Origin: Squalus acanthias
Lineage: Eukaryota
Reading direction: 5' to 3'
Assembly (NCBI GenBank): GCA_030390025.1
Contig: CM059432.1
Span: 77,378,001 to 77,442,000, forward strand
DNA length: 64,000 nucleotides
Both the position numbers and the translations under genes were made by a program. The notes under the pieces were generated by a model. That model made no database searches. It had not been told where the DNA came from and saw only the letters and a list, made by a program, of their open reading frames with translations. Positions 13,718 to 60,250 of this stretch are shown piece by piece (within the stretch, counting starts at the first letter, position 1; each line of letters opens with the position of its first letter).

Positions 13718-14026
13718 AGGGGAGGGGGATTAACTAAAATTTTTCTAACATATCGGGGGAATGTTCGATGCGTATGTAAATATATTGTTCAGTCTGTTAA
13801 GACTTATTTTGATGTGGTAAGAACCAGTTTTGCTTGTTAATGAATTGTTGTGTTTGTTTGTTATTGGTTGTGCTTAATAAGACACAGTTGTTCAGAAAAA
13901 TAAAATATTTTATTGAAACGTTACAAATTTCCTCATGTTACTCATTGGAACTTTGCCTGGTAAGAGGGGCTGCGGGATGGCTGTAATGATGAGCTTGTTG
14001 ATCCCAAATCCCATCTTCTCTGTCAT

Positions 14027-15018
14027 TCATCGGAAGCACTGTGTTATGAGGCGTTCACGAACGGCCCTTGCAGAAGCAACATTGAGCGCCTCCCTCCCAG
14101 GTTGTTGTTGCTCATCTTCCTCTTCATCCTCTTCCTCCGCCTCTTCCTCCTCCTCCTCTCCCTCTTCCTCCTCCTGAGGTGGTCCACCAATCCCTGGTGG
14201 CAATGGCTGAGTCCTCAGAATTGCGAGGTTGTGAAGCATGCAGCACACAACAATGAAAACCGATACGCGATCGGGGGAGTACTGCAGGGCTCCTCCAGAG
14301 TGGTCAAGACACCGGAACCGTTGCTTCAGCACGCCGATCGTCTGTTCAATGAGGTTCCTAGTGGTGCTATGGCTCTCATTGTATGCAAGCTCAGCAGGAT
14401 TGTTGGGGTTACAGAGCAGTGTCATCAGCCAGGTGCAGAGTGGATAACCCTTGTCTCTGAGGCCCCAGCCACCAGGTTAATGCGGTGGTTGGAACAGGTC
14501 TGGTACACCAGTCTGGCACAGGATGAATGCATCGTGGCTGCTGCCAGGATAGCGGGCATTGACGGCGAGGATGTGATGTCTGTGGTCGCAAACCAACTGG
14601 ACGTTCAGAGAGTGGAAGCCTTTGTGGTTGTGGAAAACCTCTGCATTTTCATGAGGTGCCCGCAATGCCATGAGCGAAAAAGTCAATGGCACCCTGAACC
14701 ATGGGGAAGCCCGCTATCCTAGCGAAGCCACATGCGCATTCACGTTATTTGTCTCGCTTCATGGGGAATGAGATGTACTCCCTTCCCCTTTTGTAGAGAG
14801 CATTTGTGACCTCCCAAATGCAACAATGGACAGCGAACTGGGAGATGTTCACCATATCCCCTGTTGAAGCCCTGAAGGAGCATCTGGTGTAGAAATTGAG
14901 AGCCACTGTCACCTTCACTGTCACTGACAGAGATGTCCTGGTCCTGAGCTGAGGCTGGAGCTCTGGCTGCAGGAGGTGGCAGAGCTCTGTGATCACCTCC
15001 TTGCTGAAGCGGAGCCCT
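14027..15018 (-). pseudogene. HARBI1-like DDE transposase, 5'-truncated and frameshifted
   Basis: [57 protein letters not shown], poly-Glu tail. Confidence 0.92.
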
Positions 15019-19909: not shown

Positions 19910-20995
19910 CAGGATCTACAGTGGAGGGAGCGGAGGCAGCGAGAAAGATTGGAACATGTGGCCAGAGGGAGGAGAAGGGCCATGAGGGCTCTCAACAGGA
20001 GGCCTTACCCTCTGAGGGTATTCCAAGAGCACTTCTCCTACCTCCAATTAAGCGAGGAGCAGTATATTAGAAGGCTCCCCTTCAGCAAGGAGGTGGTCAC
20101 AAAACTCTGCTACCTCCTGCAACCAGACTTCAAGCCTCAGATCAGGGCAACCATGGGTCTCTCAGTGGCAGTCAAGGTCACTGTCAGCCTCAATTTCTTC
20201 GCCAGTGGATCCTTCCAGTCTGCAACAGGAGATATAGCTAACATCTCGCAGTTTGCCGCCCATCGTTGCATCCAGGAGATCACAGAGGCCCTCTACAGTA
20301 GGAGAAGGGACTACATTTCCTTCCCCATCACCAGAGAGAAGCAGGACGAACGTGCATGTGGCTTTGCCAGGATAGCGGGCTCCCCCATGGTGCAGGACGC
20401 CATTGACTGCACCCACGTGGCTTTGCGGGCACCGCATAACAATCCTGAGATCTTCCGTAACCGCAAAGGCTAACACTCACTTAATGTGCAGTTGGTGTGC
20501 GACCACACACAGCGAATCCTCACCATCAGTACCTGCTATCCTGGCAGCAGCCACGATGTCTTCATCCTGCGCCAGACCGGTGTGCCAGCACTCTTCCAGC
20601 CACCACATCAAGCTCACGGCTGGCTGCTCGGAGACAAGGACTATCCACTCTCCACCTGGCTCATGAATCCCCTCCGCAACCCCAACACTCCTGCCCAGCA
20701 CTCATATAATGAGAGCCATGCTGCCACCAGGAACATCATCGAGCAGACCATCGGAGTGTTCAAGCAACGGTTCCGCTGCCTTGACCGCTCGGGAGGAGCC
20801 CTCCAATACTCGCTGGAGTGGGTGTCCCAATTCATGGTGGTCTGCTGCATGCTGCACAACTTGGCCATCATGAGGGCCCAGCCCTTGCCACCAGGGATTG
20901 CGGAACCACCTCAGGAGGAGGAAGAGGGAGAGGAGGAAGAGGATGAGGACGAGGAGGAAGAGGAAGACGAGAAGGAGGAGGAGGAACAGGAGTGA
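19910..20995 (+). pseudogene. HARBI1-like transposase, one frame with a single nonsense codon (TAA 20471-20473), start lost
   Basis: ORFs 19949-20473 and 20486-20995 share a frame; DDE motifs AIDCTHV, LLGDKDY, RNIIEQT. Confidence 0.93.
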
Positions 20996-21218
20996 GCCAC
21001 TCAATCGGCCTTCCAGAAGGGCGGTCTGTCGCTCATCAGACTGCGGTTCGAATAAATTAAACCCCAGATCCCCGTTGCTCACCACATCGCCATCGTTCCA
21101 TCCCTATCGCACACCATATCACAGCGCTAAGGTGAAATGAGAGACCACAAAATAATCCAAACTGAATTAATAAATTTATCAATAATCAGTGAACACATAT
21201 TTACATCAAAAATATTAC

Positions 21219-23108
21219 CTATTCACCCTTGTGCAATCCCTTGGTGCCTGTCGTTAATGTGCCTTTGCCTACTCTAATGCTCCTACGAAGTGTTGGCCCA
21301 GTGGCTGCAGCAGAGCTGGAGGAAGGCTGCTGAGTGTCCATGTGGGAGACTTCAGATGGCCTTGCAGGACGCCCTCGACCAGCTCTGTGCCTGGAAGGCC
21401 CGGCTGTAGACTGCACCACCTCAGCATGGGCGGCAGCAGTCTGGGCTGGCTGGATGACAGGACAAGGACAATGGCTGAGTGCCAGTGGTGGAAGCAGGAA
21501 TGCTGTCATCCTGAGAGAGGACAGCAGCTTCCTGCTCCACTGACACTCCCCAGGGGCAGCACCTCAGCATCCCTAGCAATCTGTTGAAGCACAGATTGCT
21601 GGCCTGCTGCGACACTGTGAAAGCCCTGGTCGACGGTGGTAGACCCAGCCACGATGGCAGCAGTCAGAGCTTGTGTGGTATCAAGCTGAGATTGCATGAG
21701 AGCAGTCTGAGATTGGATGCCACTAAGCATAGACTGCATTACAGCACTAAGACGTTGTGTCGCTTCCGCCTGTGCTGCAATGGAAGCTGCCAGATTGCCC
21801 ATCACACGCAGCATCAGGTCTGGGTCACCACGGTCTCTCTGGGAGTCTACCATCCTTTGCAGACTGAAAATGATGGGCTCCATGATGTGCACAGATCCTT
21901 GTGCAATGTTGGAGGCAGACTCCTCCACGCTTTTTATTATTGCCGACAGGCTCTTGGGCACCCTCGTCATTGCACCTATCATTTCCGTGTGCATGCCCAT
22001 CACCCTTCTTCTAAACACCTCCCCATCGAGGTCCTCATTTGAGTCCGGTGCAGCAGAACTTGCGCACGAACTCGCCCTACGGGGAGCTGGCCCCCGAGCT
22101 ACCCTTTACCCCTGGCCTTGCTGCAGCCGACTCGTCCCTGGTGCATCACTCTGTGCAGATCCCACTACTATACTAGCCTCTAAAGAATGCGTAGTGCCAG
22201 TATCTGAGCTGGTGCCTGCGGGTGAGACAAGCAGTGACGCGATGTCTTCTTCCTCCTCCTCTTCTCCCGCCTCGCTCTCAACGGTGCCCTCAGGGACAGG
22301 CTCCTCAGGTGCTTGCTGATTATCTGAAAGCCTAAAGGCACAAGATTCGGTTTAAGGTGAGGGGAAGGGGGCAGGAAGGGAGAAATGCATGCATACAGCA
22401 TGATTAGCTGGAAAGCATGAAACGCTTGTGGGGTGAGGAGAAGTGGGATGTGAGAAGAAGGAGTAGGGATGAACATACCGTTGTTGTCCCCACGGGGGTC
22501 AACGTCGCCGGTGGCCATGTCGCCCACCACCTGGTGCCCTATAATCTGCAATAATCGAGACTCCAGCTCAGACAGTGGTTGGGTGTCGGCTTGTCCCCTG
22601 CCTGTATGCTCCTGCTCCCTCCTGTTGTGCGCCACCTTGGCCTGCAAGAGAAAGGAAAGTGTGTGAGTGAATGTGAAGCAATGTGTTTGGGTGATGCACC
22701 TGCCATAGTTGAATAGCTGTCATTGTGTGCAAGGTGTAAGATGTGGGTGTGAGTGTTGGTAGGTAGAGATTGTTGGTGGGTGAGTGCTGGGGTTGTGGTG
22801 CTTTGGGCACTGTGTGAAAATTGTGGTACAGATAGTGGTATGTAGCATTTGTTGAAAGATTGACTCACCCTGACCACCCGAGTAAGGTCATTAAATTTCT
22901 TCCTGCACTGTGTGGGTCCTGGGACCACAGTGCTGCCCAAGACATGCTGTGCTACCTCCTTCTACATGGTGTAGAAGACTTGCAGCGAGGGCCTCCTGTC
23001 ACTTGCTGGGTACAGCACCGCCCTCCGTCTCTCCACAGTGAAGACCAATGCCTCCAATGCCTCATCGCTGAATCTGCAGGCTCTCTCCCTGGTGCGTGGA
23101 TGTGCCAT
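21219..23108 (-). pseudogene. Harbinger Myb/SANT-like gene; exons 23108-22869, 22641-22479, 22323-21219
   Basis: MAHPRTRERACRFSDEALEALV...QCRKKFNDLTRVVR|GTGAGT; GT-AG introns at the same positions as copy A. Confidence 0.88.
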
Positions 23109-31627: not shown

Positions 31628-33032
31628 GGCCTAGAAATTCGAGTGCGACACAAAAGTTACCAATGTCGCAGCAGGTTAACCGCCGCAGAAAATGGTGGTG
31701 TCGGTAGGAGTGAAAAATTCGCGCTGGGGACTAAAGATTATTAGCCCAGCACTAAACTGACCATGTAACGCCCTCCTGGTGGCATTAGTACTGGCATCAG
31801 TCCTGAATGCGACTTCCAGAAGCGGCATCGCATCTTCCAACAGCCTCTGGAAGCAAGGCTATGATTTTGCTAGGCATTGTGGGATATTAAAAGGGCAATG
31901 CATTGTCATTTGCTTAAAAGGGCAATGCCTTCTGAACTGATAAAAAAAATGCAGTTTTCAGCCTTACGCTCAACTGCCTTTTAAAAAAAATTAACATTTG
32001 AAATTTTTTTGCAAATGGGAGTCTTTAGCTCTTAAAGCTGAATTGTCTTCCACACCTCAAAAAATGGGAAAAGTGCTTCAGCACTAACACAGATGGCTTA
32101 ACAAGCCAGGCAAGGGGCACCCAGGATCTCACACGCAGAACTCCAGTTTTGTGCAGGGGGTCAACACTGCAAGAGGGGTCCTCTACCCACAGGGGCCAGG
32201 AGGCCCTCCAGAAAGAACAATGTGGGACCAGATCACCGCAGCCGTCACTGCCAGCAGTGTCACCCCCACCACATGGCTCCAGTACCCAAAGAAGCTTCTT
32301 GACCTCAGACCAGTGGTCAAGGTCAGTCAATGCATCTTCAAAAGCCATCTCCTACCAACTGCATCACTAACCTCATACACTTTTCAATGCACAACCCCCA
32401 CCCCCAATCACTCACCTACCAACAATCTGTACCAAACATGAGGCACACCTCCCATTCCTAGCTTCACCTCATCCCCTTGGAGGAGACAGTGCTGACCATT
32501 CTTGGCAGGGGCATGGCTGAAAGTATACAAGAAATGCAGCCTGCCCAGCCAGTGGTTAACCAAGAAGAGGGATAGGAGAGAGAAGAAGAAGAAGAAGAAG
32601 AAGAAGAAATAAATAACAACACCGTCACTCGATGTCACACTCCCAGTCACCAGCTCTTCAAGGTCAACCACAAGGCCATTTGCAGTGTCCCCACTGAAAG
32701 TCAGTAACCTTCCACTAGCCATGCTGCAGCCACTGGGGTAGCACTGCATGACATCAGTATGATAGGCAAAGGCACACACAAGACAGTCACTGATGGAATG
32801 CATAAGGGTGATGAGTTGATTTCTTGATGTCATATTGGATGTATAAAGTTGGATTGGAAAGTTTGCTTTGTGGTGGCTTTTATTTCAGCACTGTGGCCAA
32901 GAGGACAGTAACAGAGAGAAGGTAAGGAGTGGGACTAATGTTGAAAGGGAAATTGGGGTTGTGGTCACTGGTACCGCAGGCGGATGATTCCATCCTGGAT
33001 ATCCCAGCCAGAAAGGGGCTGACTGGGTTCCC

Positions 33033-33792
33033 TGTAGCTTTCAAAAGCTCTGAATTAATTTGTCCATGACTACACAAACCACTCTGGGTACAGGTATATT
33101 GTGTATAAGTAAAACAGGTTTATTAAGCATTAAACATCCAGTACAAAAAAGTAATACTTAACAAGGAGATAGTCACAGTCTGCTCATCGAACCCCGGCGT
33201 TCCTTCCGATTGACTGTGGCACGGTCTCTTTAACTCTTGCTGTGTTCTGTTGACTGAAGCTTCTCATCCTCTGGTTTTGCGCTGCTTTCAGTATTCAATA
33301 GCTGTTCCTTTATACCTTTTTTTCCCTTTCAAAATACATTGCAACTTGCAGCTGCTTGGGCTATCTCACCATTCTGACCTTCACAAGTACGGTCCATGAT
33401 TCCCTCCCCTTTTCTGCTGTGAGCTTTGAGTATGGGAACTTTTACATCTTTTGCCTTTCCCATAGCCCATTATCTAGACTGGTCTGAAACTTCAGCGATA
33501 AGGGATGTTAGGTATTGAAAACCCTCTATCTTACTTTGAGGCTTACTTAATGTTTTTTCCACTGGTTTCTTGTTTTTAATATAACAGAAAATCTACACTA
33601 CCTCAGCACTATTCTTGCAGTTAACATAATGTTGGCTTAATTTTACCATCATGCTTTGGTCTCAGCTATTCACCATTTTATACAGGCTTTTTAGGTTTTT
33701 AACATACAATTTCACATATTATAGTTATTTAAAAATGGTTATAGAATCTTAATAATGTTTACTAAATCCTACAGGATACATTCTATCCTACA
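33033..33792 (-). repeat. 3' LTR (760 bp)
   Basis: Direct repeat of 39490-40248 with about 25 differences by eye; AATAAA on minus at 33119-33124. Confidence 0.96.
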
Positions 33793-33794
33793 GA

Positions 33795-33804
33795 TCCCTA
33801 CTTT
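33795..33804 (-). other. Polypurine tract candidate
   Basis: AAAGTAGGGA-TC-TGTAGG immediately upstream of the 3' LTR. Confidence 0.6.
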
Positions 33805-34143
33805 GAGGGCGAGGCATTTTGACGACCCCTCAAAACTAAAATCTTACATATGGGTTTGTTCTCCCACGTTTATGTAACTCTAAGATATTCTGGGTTGTGA
33901 TCATATTTAAACGCGATCGGGTTTTGTACATTAGGTCTTTCAGGTGGCAGGTGTAAACTAGTAAGCATATCAGTACTATGAGTTGGGTGATGACCAGTAC
34001 ATGGGAAATTATCCTAATCTAAGGAGGAATTTCCATGTTTGTCCCTATGTTGTATTATTAGTCCTAACAATTTTTGACTCCCTACCTTGTGGCATTTGTG
34101 TTTAACTGGGTAGATCTTAATCAAACTTCTGATCTTACATAGT

Positions 34144-34525
34144 TCAAAGTCTTACTACATGGGTTACATATATCAAATACACTATCATTACCAGTTGGAG
34201 AACTACCTGAGTGTGTGAAATAATACAAACCTATGGGCGTGCTGATGTATTAAGCCCAATATCCCACCAGTGTGAGTTGTCCCTTATGCTATCAATTTCA
34301 ATATCTATTCTCAAGTTGTCTTGTTCCAAAACATAAAAATGCTTTAGGGAGGAGTTCAATCACATCACGAGCTCACTGAAACCCTCAAACAACAGGGGAA
34401 TGTCGTATCCAAATTGTGCCACATAATTGTGTAGCTCATACTTAAAAATGTGTTGGTTGATGGGACAGGTCCTGTTAGACCCGTAAAGCATGGTAGTTGC
34501 AGTAGTAGTGACACAGGAGGCGAGG
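34144..34525 (-). pseudogene. env-like glycoprotein C-terminal remnant
   Basis: Manual translation in one frame: SCVTTTATTMLYGSNRTCPI...LNSSLKHFYVLEQDNLRIDIEIDSIRDNSHWWDIGLNTS...VVLQLVMIVYLIYV; 2 internal stops; Cys pair, N-X-S/T sequons, heptad-like stretch, WW, hydrophobic segment. Confidence 0.55.
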
Positions 34526-37023
34526 CACCACCAAAATCACCTCATACTGGATTTGTACTGGTTTTTCCCACGCTCTGTTATCTACAAAACACAATTATTA
34601 CAGTTACAAGTTATCATTCAGTCTTACAATCATTTCACGTGACATTACAGTTTAACATCTAATCAACAAATCATGGGCTTAAAAGATTTACCAGATCTCT
34701 TTCACTGTATCCATCTTGTGGATAATTCTTGCATGATTTCTCCTTAGCCCTCAATTGTCCCAATCCAAATTCTTCAACTTCAATTTCAATCCCTCTAACA
34801 GGTACCAGTATGTTTAACTCTATTCTGATTGTTTCATTAATTAGATAGTTTCTCGATGGAGTATGTGTCAATGCTTTAAAAGTTGTTTCTCTCTCCTGAG
34901 CCACATTAACCATTTCATGTCTTGCTGTTGTCAAGTAACTGAGCATGTCTGAGACCCGTTCTTCAGCGCAAATTCACCATGCATTTCCATAAGATAATTG
35001 CTTCATTTGTAACAAATCACATTTGCACACTCATACCGGTATCTCAATATCATGCCACATGTGCCATCCAATACAAGCCATTTTCGGGCTTTCAGGTATC
35101 TTATCAAAAGATTGTAGTCATCTGGAAACCTTTGTTCACCTTCCTCTGCAGGGTCCCGATGTCTTGGGTAGTGGCCGGACTATCAAATTCAGTTTTCTTA
35201 AAAGGTTCATTATAGGCAGGGACACAAATGTCTCCAAGAGAAAGCTATCAATTTACTATTCGTAACTACACTTTCCTGACTTTCACTAGAAAGTTTTGAA
35301 AATTCCCATTCAGTAGTGTTTCAATCTTACACCCTCAATCACTTCCTCTCTCCATTTTGCACATCCCATTAATTACCATTCATATCTCTGTCATGAGCCC
35401 TGGAGAAACTTTACTGTCCAGTACAATATTTAAGATTGAAAACATAGATCAAATGTTCTCACTTAGTCCAAGTTATTATCACTTTTTATATATTATTATT
35501 TTAGAGGATCTTTTATTTTCCCAAAAGTAACCAAATATATAGTGCCTGAGTCCATTTTGTCATTTCAAAATTATCCCAAAATCCAAACAGCAGTACTGTT
35601 GAACTGATAGGTTTTGTCAATGTTCAATTTCATTTCTATCCAATTTATCTTATCAATTCCAATTTCAGAAACAAGTGATTCCAGGCTAGGTGGCTTACAC
35701 AGTGTTTTAACATTAAAGACAGAAATGCTGCATTTAGTTTACAAGGTAACTTCCATATAACAAAAGAAAGACTCCATTGTGACTCTGCTTAAGAGCCCAA
35801 GGGGTTAATTTATCAAATCATAATTTTCCTTCTGTCACTGTGGGGAAATATTAACTTAAAATTAAGAAACTTAAATTTAATAATGTCCAATATCTTTAAA
35901 TTTCATTCAGCAATACTAAAGTTGTTGCTTGGTGAACTTAAACAGCTGTCAGTGGAAAGGGTTAACTCGTTTGCAGGTTTTAAGAAGGCGGAGCGAAACA
36001 TTGTCAGGCACACGCAATTGCGTCACTTCACGTAAATTTAAAAAAACTTTCCCGATCGAAAAAGACAGTTGTGTAACTAAACATGAATAGAACAGATAAA
36101 ACAAAACAAAATAGCACATGCTTGCAGAAAACAGTAAATTACGTCATATTTCTTATTGTCCTTTCTTCAGATGCCTTTCCAAATGACTGTAAAAACATTG
36201 AATACAACTGGAGAAAAATTAGTTTTTCACATTTAAACAAATCAAATCAAACTGCCTTGGAAATTTCACCATAGCAACCGCCACTCCAAGGTTAAATTTT
36301 AGACTGAAACTTAATCTTTTGTTAAACAAACTTTTTGTTGTTCTCCTCAGTTTTTACACACCAGCTAAACTTAAATTGTAGTTCAAAGTTTTTTTTTCAA
36401 TTCTGGGTGCACAATCTTATTCGCACATTCTTAAACTTCCAAAATCCAAGACAAGACAAAAGTTTTTAAAAGCTTTTTTTTTACACAGAGAAGTGGGTGG
36501 AGCTAAAACACACACAACAGACATTCTTTTAAAGACAGACTTTTCAGACAAAAGGAATACCGTAACTTCTTAAACATTTATAATCAGGAAAACTTTCACA
36601 CTTTAACACACACTTTCACACAAACTGAAATTCCAGATTTTTTTTTAGGTTCCTTAACTCAGCAATCTTGTGTTTTATTTGTCTCGGCACAGACATTAAT
36701 AACTTCCATGTCGGTAAAACTTTCGGTTTCTCTCTCTTTTTTTTCTTTTTTTAAATCGGCGTCTCAGCAACTTAGGGGTTACTTGAGTTCTAGTTAGGAC
36801 ACTAACTGGTTTCTCAATATATGCGGAACCGTCCAGCGGGGGTTTTTCCATGTCACTGCTGACAAAGGCTACGGGGGCTGCCGTAGGAGGAGGTGGTAAG
36901 GGAGGATATAATTCTCCCTCAGACAGAGGTAGGGATTATGTCGGCAGTGCTATCTGCTCAGGCTTCTTTATAGCAAACACCGAGTGGGCGTCTGAAATTT
37001 GCACTATATCTCCCGGTTTAGAC

Positions 37024-37410
37024 TCAACCCACAAACAGTTCTGATTGCAATCTATAATGGCTGTCATTCCCCGTAGGGTGGGTGTCATTGCCAAGTATTC
37101 CCATTTCGTTGATCATACACATATATAACGGATCAGTGATTTTTATGGGGAATGTACCTAGGAAAATACTAACTTCCTTTCCCGGGTATGCTGGTACCTG
37201 TGCGCCAGTGACTCCTGTTATTATGAAGCTACTTTTGCCTATTTCAAGCTGGCATTCAGGGTCTGGGGAATGCAGGATTGTAACAGATGAACCGGTGTCT
37301 ATTAGCACAGTCTGCTGTCGGCCCCCAGGCAGCAAAGCTGAGACCACCGGTCGACCATGGCCATCTCGTCTGAACCCCACTTCAGACCAGGCCGGTGGGG
37401 CCGGATCCCA
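37024..37410 (-). pseudogene. pro: Retroviral-type aspartic protease, in frame after the gag TGA
   Basis: VLIDTGSSVT active site, ITGVTG flap, GILGND. Confidence 0.9.
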
Positions 37411-39297
37411 TCATTGTGGGCCGTTGGGTTGTTGGGGCAATGGTGGGGACGGGAATGACGAGCTCATAGTTGGAGCCACGGGGCACCCCGACATCTTTGT
37501 CAATGCAAGAGTTTGCATAATACATGATACTCTCTCCATACATGAGCCTAGGGCGTCTATTTTACTTTCCATTGGATCGGGTGTACAGGACGGACCATAT
37601 CGCGAGTAATTATTATTATTCCTCCCACCTCCAGAGCCTGTCTGTCTAGGACCTCGGCAATCCTTTGCAAAGTGTCCCACCTTTCCGCAGTTATAACATA
37701 TCAAGGGTTGCTTACAGGGTGGTGATGCTGGGTGGGCCTGGGGTCCCTCAACTACATGCACTGACGTCTCTGCTGTTGGTACCTGAACCTGAGTTTTAGC
37801 GTAGGCCCATGCAGCGTTAGCATCTCTTAAAAGGTCTGTCCATTGCGAGTTGTGGCTGACAGTGTGCCCTAAGTCTGCTCGCAGTGAGGCCTGAATATTC
37901 TTTAAGTACATTTTCTCAAATGCTGCCTCATTCTTCCCGTTTAAGACATTACCATTGGGGCGTGCCTGCATCATCTCATAAACAGTGTACAACCGATCCC
38001 CGAATGTAGCAGGGGTCTCATGAGACCCTTGTTGAGACTGGTTTACTTTCTGAACCAGATCAATAGAGTCCAAGCCCAGAGCTGTTTGTATAGTTGTGAT
38101 TAAGTTATTCAGGGGGTTCCCCACATTGAAGGCCATGAAGGGCAGACTAGTTCGTAGGTCCGGGGTCAAGGCAGACAGTATAACATTTTTCATGTCACTG
38201 TCCTCAAAATTAGGATGGTAATTCCGGAACCCCATTATACGTTGCCTTAGCTCTATGGGGCATGTTCGTGGGTTAACTGGTCCAAATTGCTGGACACATG
38301 CCTGTAGTTCTGCATAGTTCAGGGGTTGGGATCATTCATAAGTACCCGCCCATAACATTCCCGGGTGAGCTGCCACTGCTTGTGCTCCTGCTTGTACCTG
38401 GTCACCGTCAACAGCTGGTGACGTGTTAGGAATCACCTGGATACAAGTCAGAACATTAACTGGGGCTTTAAAGGGTGCAGGCTCGTCCACTGAGGTTTTT
38501 ATGATATTGTTATCAGCATAGGCTGGGGGCCTCTTAGCCAGGTCGATGGTGGTATACGAAACGGGGGCCTTTTGGGAAGGGTGTAGTAAGGGAGGATATA
38601 GTTCTCCGCTGATCTCCTCGCATTGTTTATCATAACTCACAGGGGGGTCTACTCCCGTGACTGCCGCTATTACAGCCTGTGGTTTACCCAGCTGGTTTTC
38701 CAACTGTTGTATAGTAATATGACACTGCCTGTGGTCCAACTCCCTTTGGGGGTGCTGAAGAGACTCTCTTAGGGCTCCTCGTGAATTATTTAATTGTCTG
38801 GTAAGATGGTCATTGTCTTTTGTTAAGGAGGCTACCTGACACTGAGCCTCCTCAAGGTTCTGCATTGCAGCGCCAGCGTGAACTGCATTAATACTCTGCT
38901 GCTGTATTATTGCTGTCGAAGCACCGACCTGGCCCTGAAGAACTTCAATCTTACTTTTTAACTCTACAGCCTCTTTTTCCAAGTTTGTCTTCTCGCCCGT
39001 TAACGTTTTTGTTATCTCCGTTAACAACAGATTCTCTTCTATCAGCCGTAGCTTGTCTTTTTCTAATTTATCTAACTTGGTTTTATTATTTTCCATCTCT
39101 AGGAGGGTCTCTTTATCTTGCTCTACACAATACACTGCCGCATAGGCCATTAGCTGCACTGCCCTATCTGACTTCCATTTCTTCTCCTTAACTTGTTTCT
39201 CAATGAACGCAACAACGTCCTCAAAGGATACTCTCTTATCCTTTGTTAGACATTCTGCTACTAACGTCTGTAACTGTGCAACCTCGCACTTCCTCAT
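37411..39297 (-). pseudogene. gag: Gag (~628 codons, single internal TGA at 38332-38334)
   Basis: ORFs 38332-39297 and 37411-38235 share a frame with an open 32-codon linker; coiled-coil N-terminus, LYPPL and PPAY, CYNCGKVGHFAKDC. Confidence 0.9.
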
Positions 39298-39467
39298 TAA
39301 CTTCGTTTAAAGTCTACAAAAAAATCTTACTCGACATTCTGCTGTACATTAAAGAGACGCTATCTGTTAAATAACCTAACTTTCCACAAGGACTTTCATA
39401 GAAAAACATAGAAAAATCCAAGCGCCTGCCTTATGCACAATAGACCTGATTTCAGTTAATAGTCACA

Positions 39468-39486
39468 GCCCCATTTTCGGGCGCCA
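39468..39486 (-). other. Primer-binding site, tRNA-Lys type
   Basis: TGGCGCCCGAAAATGGGGC, 3 nt downstream of the LTR terminal CA. Confidence 0.85.
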
Positions 39487-39489
39487 ATC

Positions 39490-40248
39490 TGTAGCTTTCA
39501 AAAGCTCTGAATTAATTTGTCCGTGACTACACAAACCACTCTGGGTACAGGTATATTGTGTATAAGTAAAACAGGTTTATTAAGCATTAAACATCCAGTA
39601 CAAAGAAGTAATACTTAACAAGAAGATAATCGCAGTCTGTTCATCGAACCCCGGCGTTCCTTCCGATTGACTGTGGCACGGTCTCTTTAACTCTTGCTGT
39701 GTTCTGTTGACTGAAGCATCTCATCCTCTGGTTTCGTGCTGCTTTCAGTGTTCAATAGCTGTTCCTTTATACCTTTTTTTCCCTTTCAAAATACATAACA
39801 ACTTGCAGCTGCTTGGGCTATTTCACCATTCTGACCTTCACAAGTACGGTCCATGATTCCCTCCCCTTTTCTGCTGTGAGCTTTGAGTATGAGAACTTTT
39901 ACATCTTTTGCCTTTCCCATAGCCCATTATCTAGACTGGTCTGAAACTTCAGCGATAAGGGATGTTAGGTATTGAAAACCCTCTATCTTACTTTGAGACT
40001 TAATTAATGTTTTGTCCTCTGGTTTCTTGTTTTTAATATAACAGAAAATCTACACTACCTCAGCACTATTCTTGCAGTTATCATAATGTTGGCTTAATTT
40101 TACCATCATGCTTTGGTCTCAGCCATTCGCCATTTTATACAGGCTTTTTAGGTTTTTAACATAGAATTTCACATATTATAGTTATTTAAAAATGGTTATA
40201 GAATCTTAATAATGTTTACTAAATCCTACAGGTGCACTCTATCCTACA
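39490..40248 (-). repeat. 5' LTR (759 bp)
   Basis: TGTAGG...GCTACA; TATAAA at 39766-39771 and AATAAA at 39576-39581 on minus. Confidence 0.96.
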
Positions 40249-41239
40249 GATCCCTCCTTCCTTCTGCTTCCTTCTCTTCGGCTTCTTCCTCTTCTGTTTG
40301 TTCCTCTTCTGCGTCTTCCTCTTCTGCATCTTCCTCTTCCCTCTGTGAGCGGATGCTGTAAATCTGAAATAAAATTAGAAAATGCTGGTCAGGCAGCATC
40401 CACAACCTGAGTCATGGGCCAGGATTTCATTTACCTCGCCAGGTCAGGGGTGAGCGTTGTCGGTGGCGGGTCACGGCCCCGCTGCTGGCACCATCCCACT
40501 GCCTAAATTGAACTTACCTTAATGGGGCTTGTTAAGCCCGCCCAGCGCATTTCCCGGCCCAATTAGTGGAGGCAGGTCTGGTGACATCATTCATGACTTG
40601 TCATCAGCCGATTTCCTTAAAGGGACCATGGCCAACTTTCTTTTGACATTTGTGCTGTCAGTGTTCTACAGCATTGAGGTGCTGCAGACACTGACAATCA
40701 CTGCACAGAGGCAGAGGGCTGCACTCAGGTTCTCCCGTGACTCCCTCCATATGCTGGAGGGAGTCAGAGCATGCAGGGAGATCCTCTTACCTTCTGATGG
40801 GCGGAAGACATCACCACAAGAAACCAAAACAGTCTGGTTGCAGATTGCAGAGGAGGACACAAGCAGGGATGTCATCAGGAGGACCAGGCTGCAGTGGCAC
40901 AAACCTTTCAATGATCTCATTAGATCACGAAGCATTAGTACAAAGCCACAGTCAACCTCACCCTGCTGTGCCTCTCATCACATCCCCATCACGCTGCCTT
41001 CCCTACCCTACTCCTGCACATCCTTACTCACACCAACTTACCTTGTACCTCCACCCATCCCTCTCTATCTACATTATCACTTCCCCATCTCACTCGCCAC
41101 CCCTCACACTCACCCTCATCCTAGTGCAATCATACCAACTAACAACACACAAAGGTAGGCACTTGTGTGTTTTGTCCAATGTTTATGTAAAGTTTCTGTT
41201 ACTGTGCTGTCAAGCATTGAAACCTTTATTTTCAACACT

Positions 41240-43951: not shown

Positions 43952-45934
43952 ATGGCGGAGCATCAGCAAAGGGAGAGAGCCCGCAGATTTTCCAACGAGA
44001 CTCTTGAGGCATTGGTTGTGGCCATGGAGTAGAGGCGGGCTGTCCTCTTCCCACAGACTGGCAGGAAGCCCTCACCACACACCTTGCGAAGGCTATGGCA
44101 GGAGATAGCCGCTCATGTCACGGCCAGCACTGTGGTGCCAAGGTTGTTCATTCAGTGCCGAAAGAAGTTTAATGACCTCACATGGCAGGTCAAGGTGAGT
44201 GAAGGTTTCAGCAAATGTCATATCCCACCATCTGCGCCACAAGCCTCACACACTGCTCAATGCACCATACCCCCAGCACTCACCTACCAACAATCTCTAC
44301 CTATCACCACTCATACCTCACAATCATAGCTTCATTTCACCCACACAACCTTACCACTGCTGCAACACTCACACCCACATCTCACACCTTGCACACACTG
44401 ACAGCTATTCAACTATGGCAGGCACATCGCCAAAACACATTGCACCGCACTCACTCACAGACTTCTCTTTCTCTTGCAGGCCAAGGTTGTGCATAATCGG
44501 AGGGAGCAGCAGCAGCAGACAGACAGGGAGCAGGCTAACACCCACAGCCTCAGCCAGCTGGAGGAGAGAGTGCTGGACATCATTGGGCAGCAGATCACAG
44601 AGGCCATGGCAACGGGCGAGGTTGAATGCCTTGTGGACAACAACGGTACGCTCATTCCTAATCCTTCTTCTCACATCCCACTTCCCCCTCATCCCACAAT
44701 CTCTTCTCACTTTCAAGCTGCAGATGCTGTATAAATGCATATCTTGCTTCCCGCCGCCCCTCACTATAAACTGACTCTTGTGCCTTTCTGCTTTCAGATA
44801 ATCAACAACAAGCACCTGACTAGCCTGTCCCTGAGGCGATGCACGAGAGCGAGGGAGGAGAAGAAGAAGAAAAAGAAGAAGAAGACACAGAGTCACTGCA
44901 TCTGTCACTCGCAGACACAAGCTCAGAAACTGGCACTGCCTGTACTTTAGAGGCTGGTGCAGAAGCAGGATTTGCACAGGGTGAGGCACCGGGCACGAGT
45001 GACTGCAGCAAGGCCAAAGGGAAAGGGTATCTCGGGGGCCAGCTCCCCGGAGAGCGAGTTCACGCACAAGTTCTGCTGCACAGGACTCAGATGAGGACAT
45101 CGATGGGGTGGCCTTCAGAAGAAGGGTGATGGCCATGCACACCGAATTGCTAGGTGCAATGGCAAGCCTGCCAGAGAGCCTTTTGGCAATGTCAAGGAGT
45201 ATGGAGGAGTCCGCCTCCAACTTTCCATGGGGCTCTACGCAGAGCTTGGATCCCAGGATTTCCAGGCTGGAAATGATGGAAGATTCCTAAAGAGACTGTG
45301 CCGAACCAGACGTGATGGTGCGTGTGATGGGCAATGTCACCGCTGCCATTGCAGCACAGGCGGAAGCGACCCACCATGTTAATGCTGCAGCGGAAGTGCA
45401 GACCGCTGTCATGCAATCTCAGCTTGATGCCACCCATGCTCAGACCGCTGTCATGCAATCTCAGCTTCCTGCCACTCAGACTGCTGCCATCGTGGCTGGG
45501 TTTACCACTGTCGACCGGGGCTTACAGAGTGTCACAGCAGCTCAGCAATCTGTGCTTCAACTGATTGCTCGGAATGCTGAGGTGCCACTCCAGGGGAGTG
45601 GCAGTGGGTCAGTGGAGCAGGACCCTGCTGTCCTCTCTCAGGATGACAGTATTCCTGTTCCTACCCCTGCCATTCCACCATTGCCCTTGCTGCTGCCTGT
45701 CAGCCAGCCCAGGCTGCTGCCGCCCATGCCAAGGTGGTGCAGTCTGCAGGGGGTCTTCTAGGGCCAGAGCTGCTTGAGGTCATCCTGCAAGGTCATCTGA
45801 AGTCTCCCCCACGGAAACTCAGCAGCCTTCCACCAGCCATGCTGCAGCCACTGGGGAGCACTTCGTAGGAGCACTAGGACAGGTAAGCGCACCCGAACGA
45901 TAGGCACTAAGGGATTGCACAAGGGTGATCATTA
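43952..45934 (+). pseudogene. Harbinger Myb/SANT-like gene; exons 43952-44194, 44480-44645, 44798-~45934
   Basis: MAEHQQRERARRFSNETLEALV...LWQEIA...QCRKKFNDLT; GT-AG introns; internal stops. Confidence 0.9.
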
Positions 45935-46217
45935 GTGTAAATATGTGTGAATTGATTTTTGATAAATTCATTAATTTTGTTTGGAATCTGTTATGGTGGC
46001 TCCCATTTCAGCTTTGTGCTCAGGAGGACACTGTGATACAAGGATGGTATGATGAGGATATGGTGAGCAACGGGGATCTGGTGTTTCATTCACTGGAATT
46101 GGAGTCTCAAGAGGCCATCTGGAAGGGGGATTGGCTGCCTGCCTCCTCCCTCCCTCCTCGTCCTCTTCCTCTTGCACCTGTTCCTCTTCCTTCTCCACCT
46201 CCTCCTCCTCTCCTTCA

Positions 46218-46332
46218 TCCTACATTACAACAGTGACTACTTTTCTAAAAGTACTTCATTGGCTGTAAAGCGCTTGGGACGTCTGATGGTCGTGAACGGC
46301 GCTATATAAATGCAAGTCTTTCTTTACTTTCT
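46218..46332 (+). mobile_element. SINE 3' tail inserted in the poly-Glu region of the transposase
   Basis: Matches ~4980-5095 (CCTACATTACAACAGTGACTAC...AAATGCAAGTC). Confidence 0.85.
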
Positions 46333-47370
46333 TTCTCGTCCTCCTCCTGACATGGTCTCGCAATCCCTGGTGGCAAGGGCTGTGCCCTCATGATTTCCAA
46401 GTTGTGAAACATGCAGCAGACCACCACGAAATGGGACACCCTGCTCCGACGAGTACTGATGGGCTCCCCTGAGCAGTTAAGGCAGCGGAACCGTTGCTTC
46501 AGTAGCCCGGTGGTCTGCTCGATGATGTTCCTGGTGGCAGCATGGCTCTCATTATATGAGTGCTGGGCAGGAGTGGTGTGGTTGCGGAGGGGAGTCATGA
46601 GCCAGGTGCAGAGCAGATAGCCCTTGTCTCCGAGCAACCACCCTCGAGTTTGCTGTGGTGGCTGGAAGATTGCTGGCACACCGAATTGACGCAGGATGTA
46701 GGCATCATGGCTGCTGCCAGAATAGACATTGACCATCAGGAAGTGCTGGGCGTGGTCGCACACCAACTGCACATTAGGTGAGTGGTAGCCTTTGCAGTTA
46801 TGGAAGATCTCAGGATTGTTATACGGCGCCCGCAATGCCACGTGAGTGCAGTCGACGGCGCCCTGCACCATGGGGAAGCCCACTATCCTGGCAAAGCCAC
46901 ATGCACGCTTGTCCTTTTTCTCTCTACTCAGAGAGAAGTCAACGTAGTCCTTCCTCCTGGTGTAGAAAGCCTCAGTGACCACCCGGATGCAGTGATGGAC
47001 GGTAAATTGTGAGATGTTAACTATGTCTCCTGCTGCAGACTGGAAGGATCCGCTGGCGAAGAAATTGAGGGCCACGGTGACCTTGAGGGCCACTGGGAGA
47101 GCCGTGGTCACCCTGCTCTCAGGTTGCAGGTCTGGTTGCAGGAGGTGGCAGAGTTCTGTGATCACTTCCTTAGTGAAGTAAAGCCTCCTAATACACTGCT
47201 CCTCGCTTAAGTGGATATAAGAGAAGTGCTCTCAGAAGATCCTACGTGGTTAAGGCCACCTTTTGAGAGACCCCCTGGCCCTCCTCCTCCTCCTCCCTCT
47301 GAGCGCATCTTCTCCTCTTCTTCGCTGCCTCCGCTTTGAGCGCGAGGGGAACTGCCAGTAGATCCCCCAT
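46332..47370 (-). pseudogene. HARBI1-like transposase; core open (ORF 46302-47165), stops in the N-terminal part
   Basis: GAVDCTHV, GSSHD, LLGDKGY, RNIIEQT; upstream WP*PRRIF*EHFSY. Confidence 0.92.
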
Positions 47371-53425: not shown

Positions 53426-54595
53426 ATGGGTGCTCTAGTTGTCATCCCCTTTGGCCTGCAGCATGACAGAGAGATGGAGCAGAGGCAACAAAGCAGAGGA
53501 CAAGCTGCTCGCAGAGGGAGGAGGAGGTGGAGAAGGGCTCTCAGCAGTAGGCCTTACCCACCTGGGGTCTTCCGAGAGCAATTCCCTTACCTCAGCCTGA
53601 GCCAGGAGCAGTGTGTGAGGGGTCTGCGCTTTATGAAGGATGTGCTCACGGAACTCTGCCACCTCTTGCAACCAGACCTGCAGCTTCACACCAGGGCAAG
53701 GACAGCGCTGCCAGTGGCTGTGAAGGTGACTGTGATCTGAATTTCTTCGTGTCGGGATTCTTCCAGGCTGGAACCGAAGACATCTGTAACATCTCCCAGT
53801 TCACTGTCTGCTGCTGCATAAGAGAGGTGACAGATGCTCTTAATGTCAGGAGATGGGACTTCATTGTCTTCTCTATGACCAGAGAAAAGCAGATTGAGTG
53901 TGCACGTGGCTTTGCCAGGATAGCGGACTTCCCCATGGTGCAGGGCGCCATCGACTGTCCGCAAGTGGCTTTGCGGGCACGATATATAAATGCTGAGCTG
54001 TACCGCAACCACAAAGGTTACCACTCGCTGAATGTGCAGTGTACGACCATGCTCAGCACATCATGATGGTGAATGCCCAGTATCCTGGCAGCATTCATGA
54101 TGCTTTTATTCTGCACCAGTCCGCTGTTTCCTCAGTCTTTTAGCCACCACCACAAACCAGAGGGTGGCTACTGGGCAACTAGGGCTATCCCTTGAGAACC
54201 TGGCTCATGACTCCACTCCACAACCCAAGCACACGTGGCCAGCATGTGTACAACGAGAGCCATGCTGCCACATGAAACATCATAGAGCAGACCATTGGGG
54301 TGCTGAAGCAATGGTTCCACTGCCTGGACTGCTCTGGAGTAGTCACCGGAGCATGTATCCAGATTCGTGCTGGTCTGCTGTATCCTCCACAACCCGGCCA
54401 TCCTGAGGGCACAGCCCTTGCCACCAAGAATACGGCCACCAGCTCAAGAGCAGGAGGAGGAGGAGGAGGAGCAGGAGGAGGAGGAGGAGGAAGTAGAAGA
54501 GGAGAAGGGGGTAGCGAAAGAAAGGAGTCAACTCAGACAGCCCCTTTCTGGCTGGGATATCCAGGATTGAATCATCCGCCTGCGGCACCAGCTAG
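53426..54595 (+). pseudogene. HARBI1-like transposase, frameshifted
   Basis: MGALVVIPFG...[36 protein letters not shown], poly-Glu. Confidence 0.92.
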
Positions 54596-55305
54596 CGCAA
54601 CCCCAATGTCCCATTCAACATTAGTCCCACACCTTCCCTTCCCTCTGTTACTGACCATCACAGCGTCCTTTTTCCAACAATGCTAAACTAAAAACCATCA
54701 CAAAGTAAATATTCCAATCAAACTTTATCAAACTAACCATCCAATATTACATCAAAAAATCAACTAATCACGCTTGTGCATTCCCTTAGTGACTGTCTTG
54801 CGTGTGCCTTTGCCTAACCGAGTGTTACCCCAATGGCTGCAACATGGTTGGTGGAAGGCTGCTGACTTTCAGTGAGGGAGACTGCAAATGGCCTTGCAGG
54901 ACGACCTTGTGGTGCTCTGGACCTAGTAGGCCCGGCTTCGGACTGCAGCACATTGGCATGGGCGGCAGCAGTCTGGGCTGGCTGGTTGACAGGCAGCAGC
55001 AAGGGCACTGGTGGAGTGGCAGTGGTGGGAGGATGAATGCTGTCATCCTGAGAGATGACACCAGGTTCTACCTCCACGGATCCATTTCCACTCCCCAGGG
55101 ACAGCACCTCAGCAATCCTAGCAATCTGTTAGAGTACAGACTGCTGGACTGCTGTGACACCCTGCAAGCCCCTTTCAACACTGGTAAACTCAGCCACGAT
55201 GGCAGCAGTCTGTGCTTGCGTGGCAGCAAGCTGAGCTTGCACGACTTCAGTCTGAGCTTCCATTGCAGCACTCAGACATTGGATGACTTTTGTTTGTGCT
55301 GCAAT

Positions 55306-56500: not shown

Positions 56501-57500
56501 TTGGTCTGTCTGCTTCTATGCCAATTTGCACGTGGCTCGGGCAATAATCCAGAGCTTATTACCCTCGAGGTCCTGCTTTTTAATTTAGATCCTGATACTC
56601 TTTCAGCAGGACCTCCTCCCTGTTCCTACCTATGTCGTTTGTTCCATCATGGACCATGACAACTGGATTTACCCCCTCCCTTTCCAAGTTCCTCTCCAGC
56701 CGTCATGAGATATCCCTTACCCTGGCACCGGGTAGGCAACACACCCTTCAGGATTCTCGTTCTTGGCTGCAGAGGACACTATCTATCCCCCTAATTATAG
56801 AATCCCCTATCACTACCACATTTCTATTCTGCTCTTCCCCCCCTTGGACAGCCTTCTGAGTCACAGTCTGCATTGTGGCTGTCCTCCCTGCAGTCTTTCT
56901 CCTTGTCCTCACAGGTAGCGAGTACATCGTACCTGTTCGACAGGACCAGTGTCTGCGAGACCTCCTTCTCAACCTCTCCTAAATCCCCCCTACCCGTCTC
57001 CCTCACAGTCACACCCTCCCTTTCCTGAACCTGTGCTTTCCTCTGGGGTGTGACTGTATTGTGTATAAAACTGTCCAGAAAATCCTACTCCTCCCTTATG
57101 TGTCAGAATGTCTCCAACTCGGACTCCAGCTCAATGACTCTGAGCCGGAGAGATTCAAGATGGAGACATCTCCTGCAGACATGTTTGCTCAGAACAGTCT
57201 CGCTGTCCACAAACTCCCACATACTGCAGTCCAGACACACAACCTGCTCTGTCATATCTTAGTCTAGCCTTATTTTATTTATTTAATTAGTTAAAGTCTT
57301 TATTCAATGATTATTTATAGTTATATTAATTAGTTTAACTACTTAAGCTATAAATTTAATACAGTATGTTATAGATTCCCACTCCTAGTTTAAACTACTG
57401 TCTTAGTTTAGAGAGAAAAAAACCATAATACTCACCAACCAATCACCTACCTGCTGTCCTGTGATGTCACACATTGTTTTTTTTGGAAATCGTGGAAGGC
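56501..57500 (-). mobile_element. CR1 5' UTR and ORF1 (Cys-rich/leucine-zipper N-terminus, GDS esterase-like domain)
   Basis: MTEQVVCLDCSMWE...VCRRC...[39 protein letters not shown]. Confidence 0.85.
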
Positions 57501-57501
57501 C

Positions 57502-58478
57502 CCGTCACCGCTGCCTCCGATTAGATCGTGCTGTTCCTCCGCTCTCTCCTTTATGTCCCACCGACACTGTCTCCGATTGAGTCGTGCTGTTCCTCCGCTC
57601 TCTCCTTTATGTCCCGTCACCGCTGCCTCCGATTAGATCGTGCTGTTCCTCCGCTCTCTCCTTTATGTCCCGTCACCGCTGCCTCCGATTAGATCGTGCT
57701 GTTCCTCCGCTCTCTCCTTTATGTCCCACCGACACTGCCTCCGATTAGATCGTGCTGTTCCTCCGCTCTCTCCTTTATGTCCCACCGACACTGTCTCCGA
57801 TTAGATCGTGTTGTTCCTCCATTCTCTCCTTTATGTCCCACCGACACTGTCTCCGATTAGATCGGCACTGTTCCTCCGCTCTCTCCTTTATGTCCCGTCA
57901 CCGCTGCCTCCGATTAGATCGTGCTGTTCCTCCGCTCTCTCCTTTATGTCCCGCCGACACTGCCTCCGATTAGGTCGTGCTGTTCCTCCGCTCTCTCCTT
58001 TATGTCCCACCGACACTGCCTCCGATTAGATCGTGTTGTTCCTCCGCTCTCTCCTTTATGTCCCACCGACACTGCCTCCGATTAGATCGTGCTGTTCCTC
58101 CGCTCTCTCCTTTATGTCCCACCGACACTGCCTCCGATTAGATCGTGCTGTTCCTCCGCTCTCTCCTTTATGTCCCACCGACACTGCCTCCGATTAGATC
58201 GTGCTGTTCCTCCGCTCTCTCTTTATGTCCCACCGACACTGTCTCCGATTGAGTCGTGCTGTTCCTCCGCTCTCTCCTTTATGTCCCACCGACACTGCCT
58301 CCGATTAGATCGTGCTGTTCCTCCGCTCTCTCCTTTATGTCCCGCCGACACTGTCTCCGATTAGATCGTGTTGTTCCTCCGCTCTCTCCTTTATGTCCCG
58401 TCACCGCTGCCTCCGATTAGATCGTGCTGTTCCTCCGCTCTCTCCTTTATGTCCCGCTGCCACCGCTGTTGCCTCCGG
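57502..58478. repeat. Tandem array, 56-bp unit, ~17.5 copies
   Basis: CCGATTAGATCGTGCTGTTCCTCCGCTCTCTCCTTTATGTCCCACCGACACTGCCT, with variant ending CCCGTCACCGCTGCCT. Confidence 0.97.
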
Positions 58479-58484
58479 TTAGTT

Positions 58485-60250
58485 AGTTAAACACGATTTG
58501 CCTTTAACAAATCCGTGCTGGCTTTCCTTAATTAATCTACATTTGTCCAAGTGACTGTTAATTTTGTCCCTGATTATCATTTCTAAAAGCTTCCCCACTA
58601 CCAAGGTTAAACTGACTGGCTGTAGTTGCTGGGCTCATCCTTACACCCATTTTTGAACAAGGGTGTAACATTTGCAATTCTCCAGTCCTCTGGCACCACG
58701 CCTGTATCTAAGGAAGATTGGAAGATTATGGCCAATACCTCCGCAATTTCCACCTTAACTTCCCTCAGCATCCTAGGAAGCATCCCATCCGGTCCTGGTG
58801 ACTTATCTACTTTAAGTACAGCCAGCCTTTCTAGTACCTTCTCTTTATCAATTTTTATCCCATCCAGTATCTCCACTACCTCCTCTTTCACTATGACTTT
58901 GGCCGCATCTTCTTCCTTGGTGAAGACAGATGCAAAGTACTCATTTAGTACCTCAGCCATGCCCTCTGCCTCCACGTGTAGGTCTTCTTTTAGCTCTCTA
59001 ATCGGTCCCACCCCTCCTCTTACTACCTGTTTATTATTTATATGCCTATAGAAGACTTTTGAATTCCCTTTTATGTTAGCTGCCAATGTATTCTCATACT
59101 CTCTCTTTGCCCCTCTTATATTCTTTTTCATTTTCCCATTGAACTTCCAATATTCAGCCTGATTCTCACTTGTATTCTCAACCTGACATTTGTCATACGC
59201 ACTCTTTTTCTGCTTCATCTTACTCTCTATCTCTTTCGTCATCCAGGGAGCTCTGACTTTGGTTGCCCTACCTTTCCCCCTCGTGGGAATGTACCTCGAC
59301 TGTACCCGAACCATCTCTTCTTTAAAGGCAGCCCATTGTTCGATTACAGTTTTGCCTGCCAATCTTCGATTCCAATTTACCCGGGCCAGATCCGTTCTCA
59401 ACCCACTGAAATTGGCCTTCCTCCAATTAAGTATTTCTACTCCAGATTGCTCCCTGTCCTTTTGCAAAGCTAATCTAAACCTTATGATACTATGATCACT
59501 ATTCCCTAAATGTTCTCCTACTGACATTTGCTCCCACCTCAGTTCCCAGAACCAGATCCAGCAATGCCTCCTTCCTCGCTGGGCCGGAAATGTACTGATC
59601 AAGAAAGTTCTCCTGAACACACTTCAGTAATTCTTCCCCCTCTCTGCCCTTTACACTATTACTATCCCAGTCTATATTAGGATCGTTGAAGTCCCACATT
59701 ATCACTACTCTATAGTTCTTGCACCTGTCTGTAATTTCCCTGCAAATTTGCTCCTCTATATGCTTCCCACTAGTTGGTAACCTATAGAATATACCTAGTA
59801 GTGTAATGGCACCTCTATTATTTTTTAACTCTAACCAAATAGATTCTGTCCTTGACCCCTCCAGGACATCCCCTCTCTCCAGCACTGTAACATTCACCTT
59901 AACCAATACAGCCACCCCACCTCCTTTCTTTCCTTCCCTATCTTTCCTGAACACCTTATATCCAGGAATATTTAATACCCAATCCTGTCCTTTTTTGAGC
60001 AAGGTCTTCATTATTGTACAACATCATATTCCCATGTGGCTATTAGCACCTGCAGCTCACCAACCTTATTTACCACACTTGGAGCATTTACACACATACA
60101 CTGTAAACTTTTTCTTAGATCTTCTTGTATTCTCTCTGAGTCTGACTCCACCTAATACCTTACTGTTTCTTATTCTAGTGCTATCTGTCTCTCCCCATCC
60201 TTTGTGTACCTCCTTTCCCCTTTTAATGCTACATCCTGGTGCCCATCCCT
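58485..60250 (-). mobile_element. CR1 inter-ORF region, APE endonuclease and RT first half
   Basis: KKGGGVAVLVK, DFNDPNIDW, LGNSDH, PWMTKEI, KSPGPDG, ends at QHGFVKGKSCLTN. Confidence 0.93.

Follow-up and report, generated by a model that had tools for sequence, protein, structure and literature searches.

A pol-less endogenous retrovirus of Squalus acanthias is a three-donor recombinant, likely spread by the enzymes of its parent

Introduction

A provirus at positions 33033-40248, on the minus strand, of a 64,000-nucleotide stretch of Squalus acanthias DNA (GCA_030390025.1, contig CM059432.1, positions 77,378,001 to 77,442,000; hereafter the window) raises the question of how an endogenous retrovirus (ERV) with gag and protease but no polymerase comes into being and spreads. 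A first-pass annotation, made from the sequence alone, described it as a non-autonomous, possibly lokiretrovirus-like element with an env relic, in which gag and pro had been kept under selection. Here, we report that the element is very probably a broken copy of a pol-less ERV recombined from three donors, of a kind likely spread by the reverse transcriptase (RT) and integrase of its parent. The mosaic itself, junctions shared between loci, separate insertion sites with 4-bp target-site duplications (TSDs), pol-bearing parents of similar long terminal repeat (LTR) age and intermediate forms were all observed in the genome.

Results

A sister subfamily and a second ERV family occupy the place of pol

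The provirus is bounded by a 5' LTR (39490-40248) and a 3' LTR (33033-33792), each with TG...CA ends. The two are identical at 746 of 771 aligned columns (96.8%; Kimura two-parameter distance 0.033), which corresponds to an age of 7.6 My if the rate is 2.2e-9 per site per year, and of 76 My if it is 2.2e-10. A primer-binding site (PBS; 39469-39486), which we take to be of the Lys type, lies 3 nt downstream of the 5' LTR. The gag gene (39297-37414, or 37411-39297 with its terminal TGA) comprises 628 codons with a single internal stop (38334-38332) and encodes an N-terminal front, a proline-rich linker, a capsid and one CCHC zinc knuckle (37654-37698; Pfam zf-CCHC, E = 7.3e-8). The front appears coiled-coil-like, as judged from its sequence pattern and its alignment to the Gag of snakehead retrovirus (SnRV). 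After the in-frame TGA follows the protease (36925-37410), with a DTG motif, weak Pfam matches (E = 0.007-0.08) and a frame break near 37080; beyond the protease core, about 50 codons missed in the first-pass annotation extend to where the RT region begins. Pfam searches of all six frames, with stops read as X, identified no pol domain between pro and the 3' LTR, and a Pol profile built from 13 relatives returned nothing at E < 1. The anatomy first described (LTRs about 97% identical, a Lys PBS, a 628-codon gag with one stop, a protease, and no RT, RNase H or integrase) is thus confirmed.

Analysis of the remaining 3.2 kb revealed that the pol slot was replaced rather than simply lost. The LTRs, gag and protease belong to a family referred to here as A, the 5' LTR being assigned by LTR comparison across copies, and family-A sequence is cut at a recombination junction at 36925/36924. 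From 36924 to 34145 no match to family-A pol or env DNA was found. The first 150 bp beyond the junction (36773-36924) derive from the proline-rich gag region of a sister subfamily, A2; the source is represented by 16 loci in which gag continues into the capsid (77-91% DNA identity; 41% amino acid identity to family-A gag). A search of the genome with the whole 36924-34145 stretch gave 4267 candidates and led to family D, a separate ERV with its own LTR pair and a Leu-type PBS. The segment shared with family D (34145-36773; 2.6 kb, about 86-89% identity to D elements) is largely non-coding, as is most of the D interior, and carries near its end the decayed C-terminal part of a D env (34162-34515; ectodomain end and transmembrane helix; 38% amino acid identity to family-A Env, profile E = 2e-19). 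Searching with the D leader gave 2382 candidates; all 20 loci fetched started with a D LTR and joined the shared segment at window position 36773, and none carried a family-A LTR. Profiles for Pol, the Env N-terminus and the Env middle had no match in the 3.3 kb after pro, 36770-34520 included, or in D interiors.

The element returns to family A through a switch with a 2-nt overlap. A 96-bp internal piece of family-A env (34050-34145) is followed, across a deletion of about 670 bp, by the env 3' tail (33833-34054; transmembrane helix and cytoplasmic tail; 88% amino acid identity); in the parent, about 670 bp separate the two pieces. A polypurine tract (33793-33804) then adjoins the 3' LTR. The env relic noted earlier consists of two different envs, a decayed D env end and a family-A tail; this, and the origin of most of the 3.2 kb in another ERV family, had been missed.

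Both donors occur in further copies. Family D (for example L075 and L090-L109) is very abundant, with elements of 5 kb that have 778-bp LTRs, a 3.4-kb interior and 4-bp TSDs. Many A2 loci cluster on few contigs and may be duplicates; L122-L139 (mostly on contigs C2450, C3632 and C3253) are decayed, nearly identical to one another and have an insertion in common, and were probably amplified by duplication.

The same junctions recur at separate sites alongside pol-bearing parents

A gag-pro query of the 3.7-Gb genome returned 253 candidates, of which 40 were scored; 39 gag-bearing loci were fetched. RT was present in 18 of the 39. These family-A copies encode protease, RT, two RNase H domains (PF17917/PF17919 and PF00075) and integrase, as identified by Pfam, together with env, and they share their LTR family and PBS with the window element; the pol-containing relative that the first-pass annotation had postulated as a helper thus exists in this genome. 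All 39 loci were broken somewhere.

The chimeras fall into three classes. Class B, to which the window copy belongs, runs from gag-pro to the RT start and then into the A2/D chimera; its junction between pro and insert was spanned by 8 of 40 scored matches. Three of these loci (L035, L049 and L085) share flanks, so that the eight represent six independent sites with unrelated flanks. The pol deletion is accordingly not peculiar to the window copy, and the call of a non-autonomous element stands. Class C continues through gag to the zinc knuckle before entering the same chimera (13 of the 39 loci, plus L084). Class E has a family-A LTR and the gag front, then the 150-bp piece and D (L086 plus 11 others among 30 loci, two being partial). 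The 3' junction from D to family-A env was spanned by 38 of 40 scored matches, so that at least 38 loci have it. Perfect 4-bp TSDs flank L032 and L035/L085 (class B), L046 (class C), L053 and L067 (family A) and three D loci, while several others were imperfect or unreadable.

In most copies of families A and D and of classes B and C, the two LTRs were 95-98% identical, indicating that the families and classes overlapped in time. In the gag tree, classes B and C nest with nine pol-bearing copies in a star-like subclade (support 100). The LTRs of class B are of several types, and two of these types are nearest to those of the pol-bearing copies L058 and L040; such variety close to the helpers is as expected under repeated exchange with them.

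Two further kinds of copy were seen. Loci L039, L040, L054, L055 and L059 are plain internal-deletion forms of family A, of which L059 keeps env and is without pro, RT and most of integrase. The class-C copies L060, L062, L064, L065 and L066 contain a long interspersed nuclear element (endonuclease and RT) within the D segment, and four of them are about 99% alike and likely duplicates.

A proposed stepwise origin by template switching

These chimeras lack pol, occupy several independent insertion sites and share LTR, PBS and polypurine tract with a relative that bears pol, the pattern of a trans-mobilized non-autonomous ERV. They could have arisen in steps. In the first, the 5' part of an A/A2 gag would have joined the D interior, and D would have rejoined family-A env near the 3' end, producing class E (LTR, gag front, D, env tail, LTR); later switches from family-A genomes into this chimera would then have produced classes C and B. 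The order, with E before C and B, is one that we infer from their nesting. Recombination likely took place when reverse transcription switched templates between RNAs packaged together, and retention of the family-A LTR, PBS and polypurine tract throughout would have made reverse transcription and integration by the A enzymes possible.

Several observations weigh against this account. The TSD of the window copy is ambiguous, being either a 4-mer offset by two bases (33029-33032, matched at 40251-40254, two bases past the 5' LTR end; 4 bp is usual in the family) or a 6-mer in which one base differs. An autonomous, pol-bearing D parent was seen in none of the 20 D loci. The LTR pairs of the L035/L049/L085 insertion are only 87-93% alike, so that a long time may separate the members of class B, and the trees of gag, LTRs and the D segment do not resolve class B as a single clade. 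Co-packaging and trans-complementation are what we infer from the sequences of the copies. With regard to the parent, the shark RT was not grouped with that of SnRV at any support, SnRV lying in an open fork of the Retroviridae clade, and the resemblance of family-A Env to F proteins comes from ESM features only (Baculo_F 0.95, Fusion_gly 0.90), with a low recognition score.

Selection on gag and a hint of transcription

To examine selection, the ratio of nonsynonymous to synonymous substitution rates (dN/dS) was calculated along the natural open gag frame, leaving out duplicates and the most decayed class-C copies. Pol-bearing copies gave values of 0.36-0.56, with 0.56 for those in the same subclade as classes B and C. 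Class B gave 0.69 (0.54-0.89; six independent copies), compared with off-frame controls of 1.02 and 1.06, and class C gave 0.84 (0.63-1.10; seven copies), rising to 0.96 with ten copies. Within class B, the nonsynonymous share was lower among shared changes (15:13) than among singletons (168:75), although the difference was not significant (Fisher P = 0.13).

The first-pass annotation had proposed that gag-pro stayed under selection. The class-B ratio lends this weak support, but class-B copies are 90-95% identical to the window copy in gag DNA and 92-94% in the dead D segment, so that gag is no better kept. The apparent advantage of gag over env is mostly inherited, since the captured env was already dead. 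Modest selection on class-B gag is possible, and the signal may have been inherited from the helper pool.

Sequencing contigs gave a hint that one sister copy is transcribed. Contigs of three out of four runs, from two studies, matched the class-C locus L042 with 3-5 differences over 0.9-1.6 kb, and the outermost flank bin had a depth of 0-1.7. The class-C junction was bridged by one contig in each of two runs, and difference counts assigned these junction contigs to L042 (G000:C3102). That these runs are RNA is a guess: among the sequencing runs listed as matching, none is recorded as RNA. No long contig piece near the window copy was found among the matches listed.

Selection of their own, through cis-preferential packaging or a benefit to the host, might have kept Gag or Gag-Pro in the pol-less elements, and the class-B ratio relative to its off-frame controls, the lower nonsynonymous share of shared changes and the near-exact contig matches of L042 in three runs guessed to be RNA would fit this. 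We consider it rather unlikely, because the shared-singleton difference was not significant, the class-C interval includes 1, the ratio of 0.56 in pol-bearing copies of the subclade means that diversity already present in the ancestors can account for the signal, class E and family D multiplied while carrying hardly any Gag or none, and the gag of L042 is broken. Slightly more doubtful still is a broader conjecture, in which the 2.6-kb D segment would carry an RNA signal (for packaging, dimerization or export) that explains both the abundance of D and an edge of the chimeras over their helper. The three families would then form a swarm in which a dead ERV took on, stepwise through E, C and B, the LTR and Gag of an unrelated virus; Gag would have been retained to package RNA in cis, and one member or more would still be transcribed.

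A less likely origin: recombination between integrated copies

Alternatively, the chimeras might have formed by recombination or gene conversion of integrated copies at the DNA level and been multiplied by genomic duplication, without a helper. Some copies are indeed duplicates (L035/L049/L085, L054/L055 and L060/L062/L064/L065), and meiotic recombination is also allowed for in the accessible text on recombinant koala retroviruses (PMC6112702). However, class B occupies six sites whose flanks are unrelated, and these, together with the paired LTRs and the 4-bp TSDs, call for a pol-less RNA that was reverse-transcribed and integrated; we regard a purely DNA-level origin as improbable.

The parent is a retrovirus with an SnRV-like Gag

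The placement of the parent was examined in an RT tree of 51 rows chosen out of 311 proteins, a set without foamy and named ERV-L rows, in which lokiretrovirus rows were labeled by motifs from a published alignment rather than being the published sequences themselves. The nearest Pol proteins came from Xenopus tropicalis (57%), other frogs and coelacanth, and the nearest RT from the X. tropicalis element P0001 (57-60%). Shark RT rows grouped with P0001 and P0173 (99/94) within the Retroviridae clade (100/98).

The first-pass annotation had considered a long coiled-coil front with one CCHC knuckle unusual for Gag; SnRV has the same layout. In the SnRV genome (L140, 10,688 nt; its row in the tree, P0020, was picked by five motifs), Gag is 625 amino acids long, with a coiled-coil front, a capsid and one CCHC, and is in frame with pro-pol across a UAG. 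The window Gag matched it at E = 2e-8 in a search within the SnRV genome alone, with values of 1e-9 to 3e-8 for the Gag homology overall, and Pol was 31% identical over 790 amino acids. The RT motifs LPQGFHNSP and LQYVDD are also as in SnRV. In contrast, the stop is UGA in family A, the PBS differs and Env has no sequence similarity. The parent is a member of the Retroviridae with an SnRV-like Gag and, judged by these similarities, likely of the SnRV-related ("Huo") group; for the ERV clades of that group our comparison drew on the accessible parts of descriptions of "Huo" (PMC6001957) and of elephant shark CmiERV lineage I (PMC4422223).

The gag-pro boundary of family A is distinctive. An in-frame TGA ends gag in 25 of the 27 copies read, with TGACGG in 19 of 27 (window 37413-37408), and this UGA is likely read through. 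In the part of a review accessible to us, UGACGG appears as the signal for type II readthrough in alpha- and coltiviruses, while retroviruses with UGA have other hexamers; family A would add a retroviral gag-pro junction with a type II UGA-CGG context outside the retroviral cases covered there (PMC13517186). The fold of the 161 nt past the gag stop, in one copy, was no more stable than shuffles (z = -0.3).

The Env of family A has an RxRR/RxKR site and is predicted to be F-type by the model features described above. It had no Pfam match, a PDB search returned nothing and its predicted structure was poor (predicted local distance difference test score 32), as was that of capsid-nucleocapsid (42). 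No 3' accessory open reading frame was seen in family A, a further difference from SnRV. In a search of a 5.8-billion set, none of 7994 candidates (365-1164 amino acids) matched Gag at E 1e-3, and a Gag search of the Atlas gave generic retrotransposon-Gag matches only.

Foamy viruses also resemble the parent in part. Their Gag lacks a CCHC, their Pol is made apart from Gag, and they have a 4-bp TSD and a Lys1,2-type PBS, the last two as in family A. The best PDB match of the parent Pol was "Pr125Pol" (E = 5e-62) and that of its integrase "PFV integrase"; however, murine leukemia virus RT scored nearly equally (E = 5e-58). The foamy layout of Gag and Pol was rejected, because a CCHC is present and gag and pro share one frame in 25 of 27 copies.

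The first-pass suggestion of a lokiretrovirus, which would make the element a shark counterpart of the pol-less zebrafish BHIKHARI, was not upheld. Lokiretroviruses are marked by an RT in the clade sister to Retroviridae, an Env resembling paramyxo- and pneumovirus F (PF00523) with an RXKR site, and an integrase that groups with CGIN1/NYNRIN. Lokiretroviruses and BHIKHARI, as far as their accessible descriptions go, share with family A two RNase H domains in the parent Pol, an F-like Env (predicted here) with an RxxR site, a coiled-coil Gag, N-terminal as in Bik-1, and pol-less derivatives spread in trans (PMC7947760; bioRxiv 10.1101/2024.03.25.586437). The top Pol matches also bear automatic "NYNRIN-like" names. 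A tether and second RNase H are, however, common to all retroviruses and thus not specific. The motif-labeled loki rows formed their own clade (100/99) outside that of the shark RT, forcing the two together was rejected (approximately unbiased test, P = 0.0004), and the shark RT motifs are unlike those in the alignment of Wang & Han. The C-terminus of Bik-1 is described as glycine-rich, whereas the window Gag has a CCHC, and Bik elements are gag-only and, in the text accessible to us, not described as inter-family mosaics (bioRxiv 10.1101/2024.03.25.586437). Wang & Han report, in the portion available, no lokiretrovirus in the three chondrichthyan genomes they screened (PMC7947760); five peptides of the frog and coelacanth matches were not found in the text of the loki supplement, where line breaks or truncation of the file may hide them. 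Membership is thus very improbable. The weakest alternatives, a single provirus that lost pol after insertion or an ordinary Ty3/Gypsy element (Metaviridae), are refuted, with no support found for either, by junctions common to many loci, a parent with env and two RNase H domains rather than one, and an RT inside Retroviridae and not Metaviridae, leaving them a negligible probability.

Surroundings of the provirus

At the insertion site (40249-40254 and 33029-33032), a perfect 4-bp duplication requires two extra bases at the U3 end; these equal the two bases that precede the 3' LTR, a pattern resembling the retention of a cDNA end that was not processed. The provirus is embedded in a dispersed repeat (32000-33032 and 40249-41200) with weak Myb/SANT-like matches (E = 0.05-0.3), presumably Harbinger-like; further copies lie near 12000-15000, 20000-22500, 44000-47300 and 53500-55300. 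A tandem array with a 56-bp unit occupies 57389-58584.

Discussion

The closest precedent for this mosaic is recKoRV1 and the other KoRV-PhER recombinants of the koala. In both, the ends of one retrovirus enclose the middle of a degraded, unrelated ERV of the same genome, and identical breakpoints recur at several loci with TSDs. According to the portion of the koala study available to us, the recombinants there also have recurring breakpoints at many loci, LTR types that vary across loci and match the parent, TSDs, disrupted frames and, at some breakpoints, short microhomologies (PMC6112702). The shark elements differ in their cartilaginous-fish host, in an SnRV-like rather than gammaretroviral parent, in an age of millions rather than thousands of years, and in drawing on three donors and forming nested classes (E, C and B), with class B retaining the whole of gag and pro. 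The literature searched, outside subscription papers and Repbase, held no account of this ERV family or of shark ERV recombinants.

These findings carry a warning for annotation: such elements are not single lineages, an "env relic" may come from another family, and a coiled-coil Gag with an F-like Env does not make a lokiretrovirus. On the basis of recKoRV, recombining with older, dead ERVs was proposed to be a general route by which germ-line invaders become disabled and old elements remobilized. Here, the helper, the donors, the intermediates and the products survive in a single genome, that of a distant vertebrate class, and outside the gamma lineage, which makes it possible to measure in what order and how often the switches occurred.

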